Under the pieces are notes generated by a model. The model saw only the letters and a list, made by a program, of their open reading frames with translations, made no database searches and was not told where the DNA came from. Positions 3,136 through 13,608 of a DNA stretch of 14,896 nucleotides are shown here, one piece after another. The stretch is from UHGV virus genome UHGV-0257029; one strand, 5' to 3'. Made by a program: the position numbers and the translations under genes. Within the stretch, counting starts at the first letter, position 1. Every line of letters begins with the position of its first letter. The DNA comes from a virus.

Positions 3136-3936
3136 TTAGTACGGGAGTTCTTCCTGAGCTTCACGAATGCGTTCAGATACCCACTCCTTGAACGTTGTCC
3201 AGTTAGGTACTGTTTTCGCAAACTCAGTAAGTTCATCGAGATCTAAGTCGTATGAAAGCCATGCCTTGAGATAACTCATTACATGGTTTTGATTGATATA
3301 TATGCGGTTTTTAAGGATTCCTCTGATGTATAGAATCCTTTGTTCTTTTGGCGGTTTTCTTTTTGTCGCTGCTATGCGAGGGATGTACTCAAAGAATTCA
3401 CCAGTAAGCTCATGGGTTATTTCTTGGGTGAGTTTTTTGTCTGCGGCAATCTCAATCGCATCGAGGATTTCTTCAAGCTTATATATTCGAAGCCATCTCT
3501 TGATAGATTTTCGCCCATTGTCATTAACAGTAAATGGCGCAATGCAGTCGTCAATTTTGGTAGCGACAATATCAACAACATCGTCTTTCAGGCTCTTAAG
3601 ACCATCTCGCCACTTGATCATCATCTCCAGTTGCTCTCGCTTGGTATTAAGTTCCTGGAGTTGCTGCCTTTGCTTTTCCATTATTGAGTTATCGCTGAGC
3701 AGTTTGTCGCTTTTCCCGCCATTACAACTATCGCAAGAAGTAATAAGGTTCATCATGTCGTTATCGCCACCCTTGCTAACTGGGTTGATATGGTCGACAT
3801 GAAGGATGACGTCTGGCGCAGAACTCCCACAGTACTGGCATTTGAAGCCATCGCGCTTGAAAACCTCAAACCGTATTTTCTTGGTAATGCCGGAACGAAT
3901 CTTTTTTACTTGGTCTGGTGTAGGTTTTTTTGCCAT
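3136..3936 (-). CDS. HNH endonuclease domain protein
   Basis: HNH motif FKCQYCGSSAPDVILHVDHINPVSKGGDNDMMNLITSCDSCNGGK near the N-terminus. Start placed at the ATG at 3936 (RBS ggag 6 nt upstream) rather than the track start at 3948. Confidence 0.7.
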   Translation of the reverse strand: MAKKPTPDQVKKIRSGITKKIRFEVFKRDGFKCQYCGSSAPDVILHVDHINPVSKGGDNDMMNLITSCDSCNGGKSDKLLSDNSIMEKQRQQLQELNTKREQLEMMIKWRDGLKSLKDDVVDIVATKIDDCIAPFTVNDNGRKSIKRWLRIYKLEEILDAIEIAADKKLTQEITHELTGEFFEYIPRIAATKRKPPKEQRILYIRGILKNRIYINQNHVMSYLKAWLSYDLDLDELTEFAKTVPNWTTFKEWVSERIREAQEELPY

Positions 3937-3957
3937 AATTAACTCCATAGAAAGCAG

Positions 3958-5479: not shown

Positions 5480-6478
5480 TTGGAAATCAGCACGGCGGTT
5501 ATTCATTCCGAAGAAGATGCTTTGCGTTTTGTTGAGATGTACATCGCTGGGCAAGATCTTCCTGATGGAATATCATTTGAAGGGTGGCCTAACTTAACCT
5601 TCCGTCTTACTGGTGACAAATTTCATGGCAGTTTGACTCCTTCTGTCATGAAGGGTTTTGTTGAAATGCAGGCCCAAATAAACCGAGCTTATGCATTGTT
5701 AAAGTACGGAGTTCCTGACCCAAGAAAGCTTTCAAAAGAAGAGAAGGAAGCTATCGAAATTCAGGTGAATGTTGAGAATGGCTCGTCCTTGATAGAAGTT
5801 AATATGGATGGGTTCATGGGTGAGGTTATACAAACTGCGGTGAGTAAAGTGGGCCCTCAAGAGATCGTTATTACAGTTTTAGGGGTCGCTCTTATATGGG
5901 GCGGCGTCGTCCTATTCAAAAAATATCTAGAAGACCGCAAAGAGATTCGCATGGCAGAAGTAAAAAGCGAGTCTGAGCGTGAACACCTTGCGACCATGCG
6001 CTTCATGTCTGAGCAGGAAACAAAACGAAGTGAATTATTGACTCAGATTATTAGCGAAAAACCCAAGCTAGACAACATGGAAAGACTTGCTCATGACGCA
6101 AAAACCGACATAGTTAAATCATTTGTCAAGGCTGATACAGCTCAGATTGATGGCGTTGTATTGGATGCAGATCTATCCAAAACCCTCACTACAAATGCAA
6201 GGCGGAAATCAATGGAGATCCGCCTTGATGGAAATTATCGCATTGAAAAGGTTGACTCCACTGATCCAGAGAGCTTCAAAGTGCAAGTGAGAAATGTTGA
6301 CTCCGATCTAAGAATATCGTGCATAGTACAAGATGTATTTCTCGACGCATCCGAGCATAAAAAAGCTCTTCAGCAAGCTGAGTGGGATAGAAAACCAGTT
6401 CATTTGTCAATCAACGCAAAAGAACTAGATGGTGAAATAAAGTCCGCGATAATACTTTATGTCAAAGAGATAACATAA
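5480..6478 (+). CDS. Unknown 332-aa protein with one central predicted transmembrane helix, in the rexA/rexB position
   Basis: ORF on the cI strand between cI and OL. TTG start at 5480 with RBS agagg 8 nt upstream (alternative ATG at 5537). Hydrophobic segment IVITVLGVALIWGGVVLF near residues 131-148. No resemblance to RexA or RexB as recalled, and no kinase or nuclease motifs seen. Confidence 0.6.
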   Translation: MEISTAVIHSEEDALRFVEMYIAGQDLPDGISFEGWPNLTFRLTGDKFHGSLTPSVMKGFVEMQAQINRAYALLKYGVPDPRKLSKEEKEAIEIQVNVENGSSLIEVNMDGFMGEVIQTAVSKVGPQEIVITVLGVALIWGGVVLFKKYLEDRKEIRMAEVKSESEREHLATMRFMSEQETKRSELLTQIISEKPKLDNMERLAHDAKTDIVKSFVKADTAQIDGVVLDADLSKTLTTNARRKSMEIRLDGNYRIEKVDSTDPESFKVQVRNVDSDLRISCIVQDVFLDASEHKKALQQAEWDRKPVHLSINAKELDGEIKSAIILYVKEIT

Positions 6479-7811: not shown

Positions 7812-7872
7812 TATGCATACCAATAACGCTTCATTCGAGGCGTTTTCGTTATGTATAAATAAGGAGCACACC

Positions 7873-8013
7873 ATGCAATATGCCATTGCAGGGTGGCCTG
7901 TTGCTGGCTGCCCTTCCGAATCTTTACTTGAACGAATCACACGTAAATTACGTGATGGATGGAAACGCCTTATCGACATACTTAATCAGCCAGGAGTTCC
8001 CAAAAATGGATAA
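7873..8013 (+). CDS. cIII: CIII (FtsH/HflB inhibitor), shorter C-terminus than lambda
   Basis: MQYAIAGWPVAGCPSESLLERITRKLRDGWKRLIDILNQPGVPKNG matches lambda CIII as recalled except for the truncated C-terminus. RBS aaggag 6 nt upstream of the ATG at 7873; the track start at 7813 lacks an RBS. Confidence 0.85.
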   Translation: MQYAIAGWPVAGCPSESLLERITRKLRDGWKRLIDILNQPGVPKNG

Positions 8014-8119
8014 AACACTTATGGCTATCCAGACTAAATTCACTATCGCCACTTTTATTGGCGATGAAAAGATGTTTCGTGAAGCCGTAGAAGCCTACAG
8101 AAAATGGAGGTCAAAATGA
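8006..8119 (+). CDS. kil: Kil-like host-killing / FtsZ-inhibiting small protein
   Basis: MDKTLMAIQTKFTIATFIGDEKMFREAV... resembles lambda Kil as recalled. ATG overlaps the cIII 3' end. Confidence 0.7.
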   Translation: MDKTLMAIQTKFTIATFIGDEKMFREAVEAYRKWRSK

Positions 8120-8312: not shown

Positions 8313-8993
8313 ATGGGAACTGCGACATTAATACTCGGTGAATCTGGCACCGGAAAATCAACCAGCATGAGAAATATCAATCCAGAGGAAGCAATACTTA
8401 TAAAACCAATAGGCAAGCCGCTACCATTTAAATCAAAAGACTGGCTTGCATGGGATGCCAGAGCAAAAAAAGGAACCGTAGTTACCACTGACAAATGGGA
8501 CGTAATAGTTGCTGCAATTAAGCGTGCTCACGAATACGGAAAAAGAATCGTTATTGTTGATGACTTCCAGTATGTGATGAGCAATGAGTTTATGCGCCGC
8601 TCAGAAGAAAAATCGTTTGATAAATTTACTGAGATAGGCCGCCACGCATGGGAGGTGATTAAGGCTGCACAGGATGCACCTGATGACCTGAGAGTCTATT
8701 TTCTTGCACATACCGAAGAAACCCCTATGGGGCGCGTGAAAATGAAAACTATCGGCAAAATGCTGGACGAGAAAATCACTGTCGAAGGCATGTTTACTAT
8801 AGTTCTTCGCACTCTTACCCGCGATGACCAGTTCTTTTTCACCACGAAAAACAACGGTGCAGACACTGTCAAATCCCCAATGGGAATGTTTGATTCCAAT
8901 GAGATTGATAACGATCTCTCTTTCGTCGATGCCACTGTTTGTGATTACTACGGCATCAATAATGTTCATCAAATTAAGGAAAACGCCGCATGA
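8313..8993 (+). CDS. Sak4-like RecA-fold P-loop ATPase (putative phage recombinase)
   Basis: 226 aa with Walker A GESGTGKS at the N-terminus and Walker B-like IVIVDD. Occupies the bet/exo position of the early-left operon; size and motif layout fit the Sak4 / AAA_24 family from memory. Confidence 0.55.
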   Translation: MGTATLILGESGTGKSTSMRNINPEEAILIKPIGKPLPFKSKDWLAWDARAKKGTVVTTDKWDVIVAAIKRAHEYGKRIVIVDDFQYVMSNEFMRRSEEKSFDKFTEIGRHAWEVIKAAQDAPDDLRVYFLAHTEETPMGRVKMKTIGKMLDEKITVEGMFTIVLRTLTRDDQFFFTTKNNGADTVKSPMGMFDSNEIDNDLSFVDATVCDYYGINNVHQIKENAA

Positions 8994-9577
8994 GCAACGT
9001 GATTTTTACTTATAACGAAGAAGCAGCACTGACCGCAGGGCAAGGTGGTTTTATTAACGAAACTGGCGCCCATATCATTACCATTACTGAAGCAGAACTA
9101 AAGCAATCAGAAAAAGGAGCCAAATTTATTGAGTTTTCTGGAGAATCCGACGACGGCCGTAAAATCCAATATCTTAGCGTCTGTGTTCAGAAAAATGACG
9201 GAACGGAAAACAAATTTGGCGCAAATGTCGTTCACGCCATGATGGGGTGTGCTGGGATTGGACAATTAACGCAGCATATGGCTTCCGCCAGTAAATTTGT
9301 TGCACCTGAATTTCATGGAAAGAAAATCGGGTTAGTGCTCCAGAAAGTATTAACCACAAACAAAAAGACTGGCGCAGACAGCTACCAGATGGAAATACGC
9401 ATCCCGTTTATTGCACAAACAGGTCAAACCCTTAAAGAAAAGGCGGAAGGCAAGCAACCAGAAACTATCGCCAACATGGTTGCCAGCCTCAAAGATAAAG
9501 ACAATCGCTCTAAAAACGTAAGCCATAATCATGCAGATGATTATGGTTACAGCCAGAACGATTACCCTCCTTTCTGA
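8990..9577 (+). CDS. Putative phage ssDNA-binding protein partnering the Sak4-like ATPase
   Basis: 195-aa ORF whose start overlaps the ATPase stop (ATGA). Acidic/aromatic C-terminal tail ...HADDYGYSQNDYPPF is reminiscent of SSB tails. Assignment from gene context and tail only. Confidence 0.35.
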   Translation: MSNVIFTYNEEAALTAGQGGFINETGAHIITITEAELKQSEKGAKFIEFSGESDDGRKIQYLSVCVQKNDGTENKFGANVVHAMMGCAGIGQLTQHMASASKFVAPEFHGKKIGLVLQKVLTTNKKTGADSYQMEIRIPFIAQTGQTLKEKAEGKQPETIANMVASLKDKDNRSKNVSHNHADDYGYSQNDYPPF

Positions 9578-9600
9578 TTATTGAAAATAAGGCTCCCATT

Positions 9601-9897
9601 ATGCCAGCGCCTCTGTATGGTGCGGATGACCCGCGCAATTGCTCCGGTAGCTCCAAGGCGGAGGTGCTGGAAAATATCAAAAACAATTTCGACGCGTTTC
9701 TTGCTCTGACACCAGAAACAAAAGCAGAACGGATGTACCGACGCGATATACAACTCGCGCTAAAACAGGAGAAGGACCGAACAAACGAAACAGCAATGAG
9801 ACCGTTGCGAAAAGCGACAATAGACAAATTCCCTGAATATATCGACCCGCGCCTGCGTAATTACCGCTCACGCTATGGCGCTATCAGTAATGACTGA
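9601..9897 (+). CDS. Hypothetical protein, 98 aa
   Basis: ORF in the co-directional accessory block; no recognisable motif. Confidence 0.45.
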
Positions 9898-9907
9898 GGA
9901 ATTTACC

Positions 9908-10072
9908 ATGAGAGGACTTGCATACAATCCCGGCATTCTTCCGGCAGAAATGATTATTCGCCAACGCGTAAAGCCAATGCCATCGAGAGAGGAATTGCTT
10001 AAGAGAAATTCTTTTCCATCAGTGAATCAAAACAAATATCTGAATGCGATGTTGCGGAGTGGGAAGAAATGA
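9908..10072 (+). CDS. Hypothetical protein, 54 aa
   Basis: ATG at 9908 preceded by gagga; the track ORF begins at 9875, but that start overlaps the preceding gene without an RBS. Confidence 0.35.
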
Positions 10073-10518
10073 AACAAATGTCACTAATTGAGATGGATGG
10101 ATTTCTTAAAGGTAAATGCATCCCACGAGATTTAAAGGTTAACGAAACAAACGCTGAATATCTGGTGCGTAAGTTCGGTGAACTTGAATCAAAACTGGAA
10201 ACGGCGTTGCGGGAGTGTCGTTCTGCTGGAATCACGATTGATAACCTTGAGGATAAATGCGCGAAGATGGCTGCTGAAAATACCTCGCTTAAGCAATCTG
10301 AGAAGGAATTTAATGACTTTTGTCGTGAGGAGTTTAGCGAATGGGAAGATGATGTTACTGAAACCCCAGCCACCGACGCCTCCCTTGCTGAAGTGCGGGC
10401 GCAGGGCGTGGAGATGGCTATGGAGCATATGCAGTCGAGCGGTTCGTTAACATTTGGAGATTGCTACATATCACTTAACGAGTTCGCCGCAGAGCTTCGC
10501 AAAGGAGGTAACCAGTGA
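10069..10518 (+). CDS. Hypothetical coiled-coil protein, 149 aa
   Basis: ATGA overlap with the upstream ORF; acidic central region with heptad-like pattern. Confidence 0.5.
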
Positions 10519-10814
10519 GTGTATATCTTATTGATAAACGTCGACGTGGGCAACAAATACCACCTGTAGGAATTCCGAATCACACATGGTTTTGCGTACT
10601 TGATATCGATGGTATGGATACGTTGGTTGACACTCGTCATTACTGCGATACCGCAACAGCTACTCCGGCGAAAGCAAAGAAAATGGCTGCTCTGATAGAA
10701 AACTGGACTCCACCTGATGGTTGGTGCAATGGGAATGATCGAGATTGGCACGAAAAAATGAAGGGCTATATCTGCGATTTTTTACGTAAATGCAACGGCT
10801 TCAGGGTGATGTGA
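10515..10814 (+). CDS. Hypothetical Cys-containing protein, 99 aa
   Basis: GTG start at 10515 overlapping the upstream stop, preceded by strong RBS aaaggagg. Confidence 0.45.
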   Translation: MSVYLIDKRRRGQQIPPVGIPNHTWFCVLDIDGMDTLVDTRHYCDTATATPAKAKKMAALIENWTPPDGWCNGNDRDWHEKMKGYICDFLRKCNGFRVM

Positions 10815-10815
10815 T

Positions 10816-11358
10816 ATGACCAACATTAACTATCAGGCACTGCGTGAAAAGGCAGAAAAAGCAACGTGGGGAGACTGGGACTCATATAAACCACACCGTG
10901 GCGCACGTGGTTATAAGGTCCGACTAAGTGGTCAGGCCATTGCGCAACACGTTCTGAAAAACAACGCTGAATTTATTGCTGCCTTTAATCCAAAGGTTGC
11001 TTTGGCACTACTGGATGAACGGGAAAGAAACCTGCAATACATCAAAAGCCGCGATCAGGAGAACGAGGATATTGCGCTTACGGTTGGGAAGCTGCGCGTT
11101 GAGCTTGAAGCAGCAAAATCAAAACTCAACGAGCAGCGCGAGTATTACGAGGGAGTTATCTCTGATGGGTGCAAGCGTATTGCTGAACTGGAAGCGCGGG
11201 AAGTTCAATTACCGACTCGCTACGACCTTCGATATGGACACCCGATAAATGCAGATGAGCGACAAGTCATGATACCTAAAGAAAATGGCAGTTGGCTTTA
11301 CCTGATTGACCTGGAACACGCATTACGCGTCGCTGACATTCGCATTAAAGGAGAGTGA
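10816..11358 (+). CDS. Ea22-like early protein (tentative)
   Basis: 180-aa ORF. N-terminal MTNINYQALREKAEKATWGDW and a central coiled coil resemble the Ead/Ea22-like family of lambdoid prophages, from memory only. Confidence 0.45.
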   Translation: MTNINYQALREKAEKATWGDWDSYKPHRGARGYKVRLSGQAIAQHVLKNNAEFIAAFNPKVALALLDERERNLQYIKSRDQENEDIALTVGKLRVELEAAKSKLNEQREYYEGVISDGCKRIAELEAREVQLPTRYDLRYGHPINADERQVMIPKENGSWLYLIDLEHALRVADIRIKGE

Positions 11359-11359
11359 T

Positions 11360-11623
11360 ATGGCAACTTTGACAAAAAAAGAACAAGCATGGTTGAGCGA
11401 ATTACAGGACGTTCTTGATCGCTGCCCATCACCGAAAAAAATTGGTTTTTACACCATTGGCGATAAAAGCATTTACCTGTATGACCTGCGCCGCATGGAT
11501 GAAATCATGGAGGCTCTTGATAATCGTTCGTCGATGGATTGGTGTGTTGCTGTCCATGATATGAATGCCGGATTTGATGAAAAGATTTTATTCCCCTCAT
11601 CAGTTGAAAGCACAGCAGGATAA
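11360..11623 (+). CDS. Hypothetical protein, 87 aa
   Basis: ATG at 11360 directly after the upstream stop, with RBS aaggagag; the track ORF starts earlier at 11306. Confidence 0.45.
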   Translation: MATLTKKEQAWLSELQDVLDRCPSPKKIGFYTIGDKSIYLYDLRRMDEIMEALDNRSSMDWCVAVHDMNAGFDEKILFPSSVESTAG

Positions 11624-11659
11624 GGACTAACACATGACAACATGGGAAAGGAAAGTGAT

Positions 11660-12175
11660 ATGGCGTTAACACACCACGAACTCTGTCAGATTGCGTACAA
11701 GTTCCTTAAGCGCAACGGGTTCAAGGTTTGCTTTCATGACCGCTTTGTTGCTGTAACCAGTACCGGAGAACAGCCAGATGCTATGGGATTCAGAAATTCA
11801 GCATCATGCCTGATAGAGGCGAAGTGTTCTCGTGCTGACTTGTTGGCAGATAGAAAAAAGCGTTTCCGTAAAAATCCCTCACTTGGCATGGGCGACTGGC
11901 GATTCTTTATTAGTGAGCCGGAAATTATTTCAGTTGAGGATTTACCTCCCGGCTGGGGATTACTTCACGTTGTTAACGGAAGAGTACGGAAAGTACATGG
12001 ATGGCCCAGGGGTAATTGCTGTTGGGGTAATCCTGACGATAAGCCATTTACTGGGAATAAGCAGGTTGAATGCGATTACATGTTATCTGCATTAAGGCGC
12101 ATGGAGTTGAGAGGGCACCTTAATGAAATATATGACGGTGTGATTGTTAATAAGAAAGAAGGAAACGCGGCATGA
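11660..12175 (+). CDS. Putative PD-(D/E)xK-fold nuclease
   Basis: Motif ...EQPDAMGF(x9)LIEAKC... fits the PD-(x)n-ExK signature. ATG at 11660 preferred for its RBS aggaaag; alternative ATG at 11642. Confidence 0.4.
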   Translation: MALTHHELCQIAYKFLKRNGFKVCFHDRFVAVTSTGEQPDAMGFRNSASCLIEAKCSRADLLADRKKRFRKNPSLGMGDWRFFISEPEIISVEDLPPGWGLLHVVNGRVRKVHGWPRGNCCWGNPDDKPFTGNKQVECDYMLSALRRMELRGHLNEIYDGVIVNKKEGNAA

Positions 12176-13038
12176 TCACTATTACCAAAGGGCGACTGCT
12201 GACAATCAAGCAGTGGCGCGAAACATACGGACCGGGTAGCAACGTTGTACTGCCAGCAGAAGAAGCGGAAGAACTGGCACGAATTGCACTGGTATCGCTG
12301 GAAGCAGAGCCGGTGGCAAAGATTATAGCTCATTACCCATTAGGAGTTGACGTAGGCAAACAAAAGTTCGTACAGGCCATTGGAGAGCTTCCTGACTTTG
12401 GCGGATATCTATTTGCCGCCCCTCCAGCGCCGATAGTGCCGGAAGAAATGTATTGGCAGGATGCGCCAGTTGAAGGCAGCAGCAAAGCGGCTGCATACGC
12501 TACAGGCTGGAACGATTGCCGCGAAGCCATGCTTCAGTCCGGAAACTTTCGGGAAAATAAAGATTCGTCAACCAATAATTTTCGGGAAATCGCGGAAACG
12601 TCAACCAACTATCCGGCAATTCCTAGTGAGGTGTTGTCCGCAATCCTGAAGGTTGCCAGGATTCGTGCCGATTTCGATGATTTTGACGGTGACAGGCGAG
12701 GTATCGGTGATTGTCTGGATGAGGCTGAGCAAGAGCTTATCGTTACCATTAACAAATATGCCAGTCAGTTGGCAGCAGAACCTATAGCGCCTAATGACGT
12801 TCGAGAGCAGACAGCCATTCCACAAGTTCCGGTAACTCCGGATGGTTGGATAAGCTGTAGTGAGCGAATGCCGGACGACAGGCAGGAAGTTGTTGTTCAA
12901 ACTCATTCAGGGTGGCGTTACATCGCATTCTACGAATCCCACTCTGGATTGTTCTATGACAGTCCTGAGGGTGATGTCGAGTATGTTCTCGTAACCCACT
13001 GGATGCCGCTACCAGAACCGCCGCAGGAGGTGAAGTGA
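12172..13038 (+). CDS. DUF551-domain prophage protein
   Basis: C-terminal WISCSERMPDD...VLVTHWMPLPEPP matches the DUF551 signature as recalled. An internal imperfect tandem DNA repeat at about 12541..12610 encodes NFRENKDSSTNNFREIAETSTN. Confidence 0.6.
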   Translation: MITITKGRLLTIKQWRETYGPGSNVVLPAEEAEELARIALVSLEAEPVAKIIAHYPLGVDVGKQKFVQAIGELPDFGGYLFAAPPAPIVPEEMYWQDAPVEGSSKAAAYATGWNDCREAMLQSGNFRENKDSSTNNFREIAETSTNYPAIPSEVLSAILKVARIRADFDDFDGDRRGIGDCLDEAEQELIVTINKYASQLAAEPIAPNDVREQTAIPQVPVTPDGWISCSERMPDDRQEVVVQTHSGWRYIAFYESHSGLFYDSPEGDVEYVLVTHWMPLPEPPQEVK

Positions 13039-13322
13039 TGGACTCCTTCGCGAAATATACGATTATTGACTGGATAGCCTTCCTTCAGGTTTTGCTCATC
13101 TGGTTTTATATGGCTTACAGGAGTGGACAGTGGATTGTCAGTGTAGCCTGTAGCAAGGGATGGCGTTGGTGGAACCGAAAGAATAAAAAAGCACTGGCAT
13201 TGGATTCATTTTACGAAGCATTCAATCTTAACAGCCTTCAGCCTGGTTCTGTCATTGTAGTCACCACTCAAAGCGGCATGACGATACAAATTCACAAGCC
13301 AAAGGAGGAAGGTCGTGGCTAA
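13038..13322 (+). CDS. Small membrane protein, 94 aa
   Basis: ATG at 13038 has RBS aggagg 7 nt upstream. N-terminal hydrophobic segment IIDWIAFLQVLLIWFYMAY. Confidence 0.45.
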   Translation: MDSFAKYTIIDWIAFLQVLLIWFYMAYRSGQWIVSVACSKGWRWWNRKNKKALALDSFYEAFNLNSLQPGSVIVVTTQSGMTIQIHKPKEEGRG

Positions 13323-13422
13323 CCTTCAACTTGCCGTCAAAGGTGAATAACAATCCTCGCACTCGCGGGGATTTCTTTTATCTGAACTCGCTACGGCGGG
13401 TTTTGTTTTATGGAGATGATAA

Positions 13423-13590
13423 ATGTACTTCCGGGTCACAGGCGAATGGAATGGAGAGCCATTCAACAGAGTTATCGAAGCGGAGAACATCAATGACTGC
13501 TATGACCACTGGATGATATGGGCGCAGATAGCACATGCAGACGTAACCAATATTCGAATTGAAGAACTGAAAGAACACCAAGCCGCCTGA
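13423..13590 (+). CDS. Hypothetical 55-aa protein upstream of xis
   Basis: ATG at 13423 with RBS ggag. Translation MYFRVTGEWNGEPFNRVIEAENINDCYDHWMIWAQIAHADVTNIRIEELKEHQAA. The stop codon lies inside a terminator hairpin. Below the ORF-track cutoff; the track ORF 13331..13516 is in another frame. Confidence 0.4.
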   Translation: MYFRVTGEWNGEPFNRVIEAENINDCYDHWMIWAQIAHADVTNIRIEELKEHQAA

Positions 13591-13608
13591 TGGCGGCTTT
13601 TTCTTGCG
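13580..13608 (+). terminator. Intrinsic terminator upstream of xis
   Basis: aagccgcc-tgat-ggcggctt, 8-bp stem with tetraloop, followed by tttttcttg. Confidence 0.6.

Follow-up and report, generated by a model that had tools for sequence, protein, structure and literature searches.

Introduction

Caulobacter MmcB, a PD-(D/E)xK endonuclease under SOS control, gives protection from mitomycin C and cisplatin (PMC9578287), and a role together with translesion polymerases at interstrand crosslinks has been proposed for it (PMC9578287; bioRxiv 10.1101/2022.06.10.495655). MmcB-like proteins are chromosomally encoded, mostly in α-proteobacteria, and correspond to PD-(D/E)xK family 92 (DUF1052, COG5321) in the census of Steczkiewicz et al. 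2012 (PMC3424549); one of them, SPO1766 of Ruegeria pomeroyi (PDB entry 3dnx), is named 'MmcB family DNA repair protein' and belongs to Pfam PF06319. The archaeal Holliday junction resolvase Hjc (PF01870; 1hh1, 2wcw) is a minimal PD-(D/E)xK domain. Here we describe a small gene on the plus strand of a 14,896-nucleotide stretch of the UHGV virus genome UHGV-0257029 (this whole stretch is referred to as the window), whose product very probably adopts the PD-(D/E)xK fold and is homologous to MmcB-like proteins, as judged from alignments and a structure model. The gene had been proposed from the letters alone as a candidate PD-(D/E)xK nuclease (the original prediction).

Results

The gene and its product

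An uninterrupted plus-strand open reading frame (ORF) at 11642-12175 comprises 177 codons from its first ATG, and within it the ATG at 11660 is the likely start, predicting a protein of 171 amino acids plus stop (11660..12175, MALTHHELCQ...KKEGNAA) from which residues are numbered below. This start is preferred because AAAGGA lies 7 nucleotides upstream and because the commonest homologue cluster (P0006, 1363 member sequences) is 171 residues long with the N-terminus MALTH. Phage records with annotated copies use the equivalent start, and PHROG 9263 aligns to residues 8-177 of the long ORF (11642-12175). The ORF of the original prediction is real, whereas the length of 172 residues given for it does not hold. 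The features of the gene, all on the plus strand, are:

11642..12175, plus strand: longest ORF, 177 codons plus stop (from the ORF list)
11647..11652, plus strand: Shine-Dalgarno-like AAAGGA, 7 nucleotides before ATG 11660 (read from the sequence)
11660..12175, plus strand: most likely coding sequence, 171 amino acids plus stop (from the homologue cluster, phage annotations and PHROG 9263)
11768..11779, plus strand: E37-Q-P-D40, 'PD' half of the active-site motif, directly ahead of strand beta2 (41-45)
11816..11824, plus strand: E53-A-K55, '(D/E)xK' half of the motif, where strand beta3 (48-54) ends
11828..11869, plus strand: helix alpha2 signature S57-R58-x-D60-F/L-x-x-D64-x-x-K67-x-F-R70 (from conservation; SRxDFxxD core as in MmcB-like proteins)
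11885..11902, plus strand: G76-M-G78-D-W-R81, leading into strand beta4 (G78 in 148/148 and R81 in 147/148 representatives)
11954..11965, plus strand: W99-G-L-L102 of 'LPxGWGLL', strand 100-105 (from conservation and alignments)
12068..12100, plus strand: C-terminal helix with conserved E137 and S143-A-L-R-R147 (modelled helix 134-150)

Homology to MmcB-like proteins

The relationship to MmcB-like proteins emerged with a profile of 48 distant members of the phage family that are 33-56% identical to the window protein. Against PDB sequences this diverse profile retrieved 3dnx at E 2.2e-4, the next entry being Hjc 1hh1 at E 0.13, while a profile of close homologues found 3dnx at E 0.3 only. The D of the 'PD' half and the ExK are both in register in the 3dnx and 1hh1 alignments: D40 pairs with the D of 3dnx and with that of 'PDIIA' in Hjc 1hh1, and E53-A-K55 pairs with IECK of 3dnx and IEMK of Hjc. 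Profile-profile comparison by hhalign of the 48 members with 30 MmcB-like sequences gave a probability of 97.8% (E 6.9e-13) over 106 columns. When the 48 members were scanned one by one against Pfam, 12 matched PF06319, all below threshold (best E 2.9e-4). The window protein also weakly matches PHROG 5429 'DNA repair protein' (the other PHROGs matched being of 'unknown function'), the significant neighbours of its model among the predicted viral structures of BFVD include phage proteins with the UniProt name 'MmcB-like/MmcB family DNA repair protein', and the annotators of Vibrio phage H8 already wrote 'spo1766 structure' for their homologue.

The likeness extends beyond the catalytic triad. 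Shared with MmcB-like proteins are the catalytic aspartate (D40 in the phage family, D39 in MmcB-like proteins), E53-x-K55, an acidic residue on beta1 (D/E27 and E29, respectively), a helix after beta3 with S57-R58-x-D60-F-x-x-D64 at the same position (SRADFQ(A/S)D in MmcB-like proteins), R81 on beta4 (R76 of 3dnx-type sequences) and an 'LP..GL' strand. Overall identity between the two groups is about 24-27%, and the phage family differs by ExPD in place of (R)VD, by GWGLL in place of E(S/T)GL(L/I), by TH.EL rather than PGQ.L in the N-terminal helix, by an insertion of about 7 residues after alpha2 ('K-x-F-R-x-x-P-x-x-G-M-G', with K67, R70 and GMG) and by a C-terminal third that hhalign leaves unaligned. 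MmcB-like proteins are chromosomal, whereas the phage family is borne by phages and prophages of enterobacteria, vibrios and others. By sequence, then, the phage family appears as a divergent sister branch of MmcB-like proteins, outside PF06319 as currently defined.

Motif, conservation and predicted fold

The original prediction rested on EQPDAMGF (E37-F44) and LIEAKC (L51-C56), in which 13 residues lead from D40 to E53. Taken alone the motif is weak evidence and does not exceed chance: PD.{8,25}[DE].K arises in 5.5% of 20000 shuffles of the protein and is also present in two unrelated window proteins (an 89-residue ORF at 836-1105 and the integrase), and the looser D...[DE].K arises in 59% of shuffles. 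We nevertheless regard the observation as real, because the residues are conserved and occupy canonical beta2 and beta3 positions in the structure model.

Conservation was counted over up to 148 representatives of clusters at 50% identity. The catalytic positions are close to invariant (D40 in 144/145, E53 in 146/147 and K55 in 146/147), as are their PD-half neighbours (E37 in 143/145, P39 in 137/145) and the alpha2 signature (D60 147/147, D64 147/148, K67 147/147, R70 147/147); the segment of strand 100-105 (W99 140/143, G100 137/142, L101 138/141) and the C-terminal helix (E137 131/139, R146 120/142, R147 124/142) follow. Ten positions (E37, D40, E53, K55, D60, D64, K67, R70, G78 and R81) are each at least 98% conserved, and H5, L8, P39, G43, S57, R58, F61, G76, W99, G100, L101 and E137 are almost invariant as well. 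Position 27 is acidic in all representatives but one sequence, and D40, E53, K55, R58, D60, D64, G76 and R81 stay invariant even when MmcB is added to the alignment. We also considered a metal cluster of cysteines (C21, C54 and C85 of the wider family) and rejected it, because the family does not conserve all three together and the window protein carries F21, A54 and S85 there.

An AlphaFold2 (AF2) model built from 40 homologues has a mean predicted local distance difference test score (pLDDT) of 86 and a predicted template modelling score (pTM) of 0.82, with disorder confined to the last nine residues. It comprises a helix (5-18), strands 23-26, 41-45 and 48-54, a helix (58-64) and a strand (80-85), which is the alpha-beta-beta-beta-alpha-beta order of the PD-(D/E)xK core; in it D40 directly precedes the second strand, and E53-x-K55 closes the third. 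Some flavodoxin-like cobalamin-binding domains score a similar Z, as is usual for three-layer alpha/beta folds. The check by structure prediction that the original prediction had proposed is thereby answered in its favour for the fold and the catalytic residues; the restriction-endonuclease-like fold it named stands, and the closest family (MmcB-like/DUF1052) is one that it did not name.

Distribution of the family

Homologues are abundant and unnamed. In a large protein collection the family forms 191 clusters at 90% identity, with members from Escherichia, Klebsiella, Cronobacter, Serratia, Morganella, Providencia, Pectobacterium and others. When 1.84 billion cluster representatives were searched with a profile, 3257 clusters were retrieved at E<=1e-3, 2485 of them at E<=1e-10, so that at 50% identity the family has more than 3000 clusters. 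Every name assigned by a source is 'hypothetical protein' or 'uncharacterised protein'. Among 50,697 phage records 642 encode a homologue, including Shiga toxin phages (Stx1 and Stx2), Klebsiella phages, about 190 Vibrio phages and Vi01-like Ackermannviridae. At a nucleotide identity of at least 90% the gene is present in 928 of 5426 complete E. coli genomes, with up to six copies per genome, and 248 of the sites in these genomes are on plasmids, which are probably phage-plasmids.

Two RefSeq records (NZ_CP023061.1, NZ_CP123334.1) carry intact 171-codon copies that the Prokaryotic Genome Annotation Pipeline calls a 'frameshifted' pseudogene of 179 nucleotides, one of the two adding a separate 110-residue coding sequence. 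These copies (L098:9001-9516 and L097:6001-6516, equivalent to window 11660-12175) translate without a frameshift, and one is 100% identical to the window. Such mis-annotation probably explains the abundant truncated clusters, for example P0050 (111 residues, 645 member sequences). In rare long forms among the distant members (P0134, P0217, P0209) the nuclease domain is joined to a TniB-like AAA ATPase, a dATP/dGTP pyrophosphohydrolase (PF04447) or, with a weak match, DUF551; these may be genuine fusions or may stem from gene calls that read through a stop.

Genomic context in the window and elsewhere

The window is the arm of a prophage with lambda-type immunity. Its minus strand encodes cro, cII, an HNH endonuclease, a replication initiator and a DnaC/IstB-like loader. 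On the plus strand, cI, a 332-residue protein of no known function, N, ral, cIII (with an Rfam thermoregulator), kil and a small recombination-associated protein are followed by Sak4, the single-stranded DNA-binding protein (SSB), abc2, DUF2737, a 149-residue protein, DUF7739, Ead/Ea22 and an 87-residue protein, and then by the target gene, a mosaic protein with DUF551, DUF4752, xis and int. The region between the recombination genes and xis/int is the exo-xis region of the literature (PMC7093339, PMC10834534). The immediate surroundings of the target, again on the plus strand, are:

10816..11358, plus strand: Ead/Ea22-like gene, the commonest co-travelling neighbour, upstream (Pfam PF13935, E 9.8e-35)
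11360..11623, plus strand: 87-residue gene (phrog_1714) between the Ea22-like and nuclease genes (residues 19-105 of ORF 11306-11623)
12172..12175, plus strand: ATGA start/stop overlap with the downstream gene (from the sequence and related loci)
12172..13038, plus strand: 288-residue mosaic protein with a C-terminal DUF551 domain (Pfam PF04448, E 7.6e-15)

Genes abut or overlap throughout 8313-13322, promoter-like sites that might serve as a dedicated promoter occur at chance level (4 found versus 4.3 expected), and no plus-strand terminator-like site is listed before 13352. Given this tight packing, the chance-level promoters and the lack of a terminator, the target should be a delayed-early product of the pL transcript.

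Neighbour statistics were drawn from near-identical E. coli prophage copies (79 viral contigs, 98-100% identical), the presence of neighbouring genes being counted in the 57 contigs with at least 3.5 kb upstream. An Ea22-like gene accompanies the target in 55 of these 57, a homologue of the DUF551 protein in 42, the 87-residue gene in 10, SSB in 2 and Sak4 in none. The 4-base ATGA overlap that the original prediction had noted is kept in nearly all of the 79 loci, yet as a sign of partnership with DUF551 we discard it as uninformative: the gene that follows is a shuffled mosaic of 101-431 residues sharing mainly its first ~25 codons, and the fusion to DUF551 is rare and weak (P0209, E 8e-4). 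We treat the downstream DUF551 protein as genomic context. The constant segment of ~25 codons reads MITITKGRLLTIKQWRETYGPGSNV; together with the 4-base overlap it suggests that the 3' end of the nuclease gene and this N-terminal segment form a recombination junction in the shuffling of the exo-xis region.

Beyond these loci the gene recurs in settings of several kinds. Stx1 phage Lys8385Vzw has a 100% identical copy among different neighbours and also encodes RusA, the podovirus-like EC.W1-9 has a 97% identical copy after its replication genes and before terminase, and in more distant temperate examples the homologue lies just upstream of integrase. Five Ackermannviridae-type homologues (Vi01, L002:4980-5597; GR28A, L086:4953-5690; Coodle, L100:2480-3094; 2050H1, L101:2429-2995; D492, L102:2480-3163) have 188-245 residues, a different C-terminal extension and a position always just upstream of the primase gene: directly so in Vi01, Serratia 2050H1 and Vibrio D492, with one small gene between in Vibrio GR28A and with an inserted homing endonuclease gene between in Dickeya Coodle. 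In Vibrio phage MAR10 genes for primase/helicase and an SNF2 helicase precede the homologue, as do DnaB and DUF3987 in a metagenomic phage. Among virulent phages the homologue belongs to the replication module; overall, the context is confined to phages and has the flavour of DNA metabolism, and the gene is a self-contained module tied neither to Sak4 nor to any one recombinase.

Discussion

The explanation that best accommodates these data, to which we give a probability of roughly 0.6, is that the gene encodes a member of an unnamed phage branch of MmcB-like PD-(D/E)xK endonucleases that acts on phage DNA. Judging by the conserved residues and the model, the protein is probably a catalytically active nuclease; whether its role lies in replication, repair or recombination of phage DNA rather than in host attack or defence is about evenly balanced. 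Several findings weigh against this reading. The window protein has no match to PF06319 even at E<=10 and so falls short of the gathering threshold, and more generally it has no Pfam, NCBIfam or PADLOC match at relaxed thresholds, for which reason we do not count it as a PF06319 member in the strict sense; phmmer of the window protein against PDB sequences gave only noise (E>0.3). Foldseek with the model, whose underlying alignment consists of 40 fairly close homologues only, found no significant match in the PDB and did not list 3dnx, although the weak matches it returned are all PD-(D/E)xK proteins (R2 endonuclease domains, Hjc, AF1548, BspD6I, Bax1, HincII and cap-snatching endonucleases), a discordance of sensitivity and not of kind. 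In temperate enterobacterial phages the gene sits in a mosaic, dispensable-looking region (Ead/Ea22/DUF551) that would suit a host-directed or accessory function as well, our literature searches (MmcB in phages, SPO1766/3dnx/PF06319, DUF551/Ea22) found no study of this phage family, and the function of MmcB itself is deduced from mutant phenotypes, with its substrate undefined.

Under the MmcB-like interpretation the protein would be a Mg2+-dependent DNA phosphodiesterase using one- or two-metal hydrolysis like other PD-(D/E)xK enzymes, in which D40 and E53 would serve as metal ligands, one of D27, E37 or E7 as an additional acidic ligand and K55 as general base or transition-state stabiliser, while R58, K67, R70, R81, R146 and R147 may contact the DNA backbone. 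Its synthesis would be delayed-early, from the N-antiterminated pL transcript through the exo-xis region, pL becoming available after RecA-mediated cleavage of the lambda-type CI repressor. By cutting damaged or branched DNA it would permit replication, recombination or repair of the phage DNA. Incision of damaged or branched DNA seems the likeliest activity because of the analogy to MmcB and of the primase/helicase neighbourhood in virulent phages.

Among the other explanations, a resolvase of Holliday junctions or branched DNA, of the kind of Hjc or T7 endonuclease I and debranching phage DNA before packaging, is unlikely. Hjc has the same D-13 residues-ExK spacing and 'PD(I/A)IG/A ... LIE.K' aligns residue for residue between it and the phage family, with PD and ExK in register in 1hh1; 32 of the 48 distant members match Pfam Hjc and 5 match AHJR-like, and the gene lies in replication modules of virulent phages, just as the T7 junction resolvase gene 3 lies near the primase-helicase gene 4. 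EC.W1-9 moreover carries it in the post-replication region without an annotated resolvase. The matches to Pfam Hjc are all below threshold, however (best E 1.3e-4), neither a match above the PF01870 threshold nor a close structural match was obtained, and three elements of the phage family are missing from Hjc: the SRxDFxxD...K..R helix, the GMGxxR segment and the C-terminal helix. The weaker similarity to Hjc and the coexistence of the gene with RusA, a dedicated junction resolvase, in Lys8385Vzw (where the copy is 100% identical) make a junction-resolvase role less likely; all known junction resolvases need to dimerise, the Hjc type making paired nicks in four-way junctions as a homodimer. 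RusA and Rap (NinG) of lambdoid phages, as small early-expressed structure-specific phage endonucleases, may overlap with the target in function, but their folds are unrelated to PD-(D/E)xK and their genes lie in the nin region, whereas the target lies in the exo-xis region. Type II/IIS and CRISPR ancillary PD-(D/E)xK nucleases (SdaI, NgoMIV, PaqCI, FokI, Can2 and Card1) were likewise considered and are far more distant than MmcB-like proteins; unlike them the target has no DNA-recognition or sensor domains, and in contrast to restriction endonucleases it has no adjacent methyltransferase in any locus examined. An inactive PD-(D/E)xK domain serving as DNA binder, regulator or structural factor is conceivable, since such folds have been recruited for non-catalytic roles, but it is highly improbable here: D40, E53, K55 and further acidic residues hardly vary among more than 140 diverged representatives, as a functional active site would lead one to expect.

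A host-directed accessory nuclease, acting in anti-defence, superinfection exclusion, defence or host takeover (for instance by degrading host or competitor DNA, much as other genes of the exo-xis/ea region modulate host physiology), is possible in the mosaic exo-xis setting though improbable and without positive support. In the window, as in most E. coli prophages, the gene lies downstream of ral and of the anti-RecBCD gene abc2, among Ead/Ea22, DUF551 and DUF4752, its neighbours are shuffled between phages, its plasmid sites and multiple copies per genome (248 and up to 6, as above) would suit an accessory function, and effects of the exo-xis region on lysogenisation and induction have been reported (PMC3824215, PMC10789677). 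Neither the target nor its two neighbours matched any of the 5027 defence models of PADLOC-DB 2.0 at E<=1, however, no cognate immunity or methylase gene is seen adjacent, the nearest characterised relative is a repair enzyme, and the primase-adjacent position kept in the five Ackermannviridae-type phages points to a core role in DNA metabolism rather than to a moron; the defence or anti-defence role floated in the original prediction is weakly disfavoured accordingly. That prediction had also offered the protein as nuclease partner of the Sak4-type recombinase, which would make it a functional analogue of lambda Exo dedicated to the Sak4-type annealase/SSB module. Sak4 modules often have no obvious exonuclease, and in the window Sak4 (8313-8993) and SSB (8990-9577) are on the same strand and in the same pL operon as the target. 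Yet six genes (~2.7 kb) separate the target from Sak4, the distribution given above (Sak4 in 0/57 contigs, SSB in 2/57) shows no association, identical or near-identical copies are found in phages that have other recombination genes or none in the vicinity, and members of the family occur with RecT-type or YqaJ-type modules or beside primases in virulent phages; on this distribution we reject the partnership, whose chance of being correct is minimal. As a whole, the original prediction is thus partly supported.

What is new here is modest: an abundant unnamed family is linked to MmcB-like proteins, and its signature residues, its distribution and its primase-adjacent position in Ackermannviridae are defined. 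It is no new kind of system, small PD-(D/E)xK nucleases being routine phage equipment, and a specialist using HHpred would anticipate the fold assignment. The link to MmcB extends a so far mostly α-proteobacterial family into phages, identifies a conserved primase-adjacent gene of Ackermannviridae and gives a testable function for a recurrent gene of the exo-xis region of Shiga toxin phages. A more specific and rather doubtful extension of the MmcB analogy is that the phage carries a lesion- or crosslink-processing endonuclease which its enterobacterial host lacks, induced from pL by DNA damage (mitomycin C, H2O2 or ultraviolet light), placed next to the primase in virulent phages, and unhooking or incising DNA at lesions or stalled forks to allow replication of the phage genome after a genotoxic trigger; if so, the protein would be a determinant of Stx-phage yield after mitomycin-type induction and the first phage counterpart of the MmcB repair pathway.

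Other features of the window

Directly after the lambda-type cI, in the slot that rexA-rexB occupy in lambda, lies the plus-strand 332-residue ORF (5480-6478), whose sole match is PHROG 6191 (unknown function), with none in Pfam or PADLOC; its location makes it a candidate for an exclusion or defence gene expressed from the prophage. A 270-residue HNH endonuclease (Pfam HNH, E 1e-13) is encoded on the minus strand at 3136-3948; its gene is inserted in the rightward early operon, with cII on one side and the replication initiator on the other, an unusual site for a free-standing HNH gene. The Rfam family Lambda_thermo (cIII thermoregulator) matches 7860-7918 on the plus strand with 88.5 bits and marks the start of cIII, which overlaps the kil ORF (7880-8119) in a different frame. 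Finally, the 307-nucleotide gap between DUF4752 and xis contains three terminator-like hairpins with T-tracts on the plus strand (13352-13403 and 13580-13599), in a region where 7 terminator-like sites were found versus 3.0 expected and where 13580-13599 scores on both strands; these hairpins may delimit the block of ea genes from xis-int for transcripts without N-antitermination.

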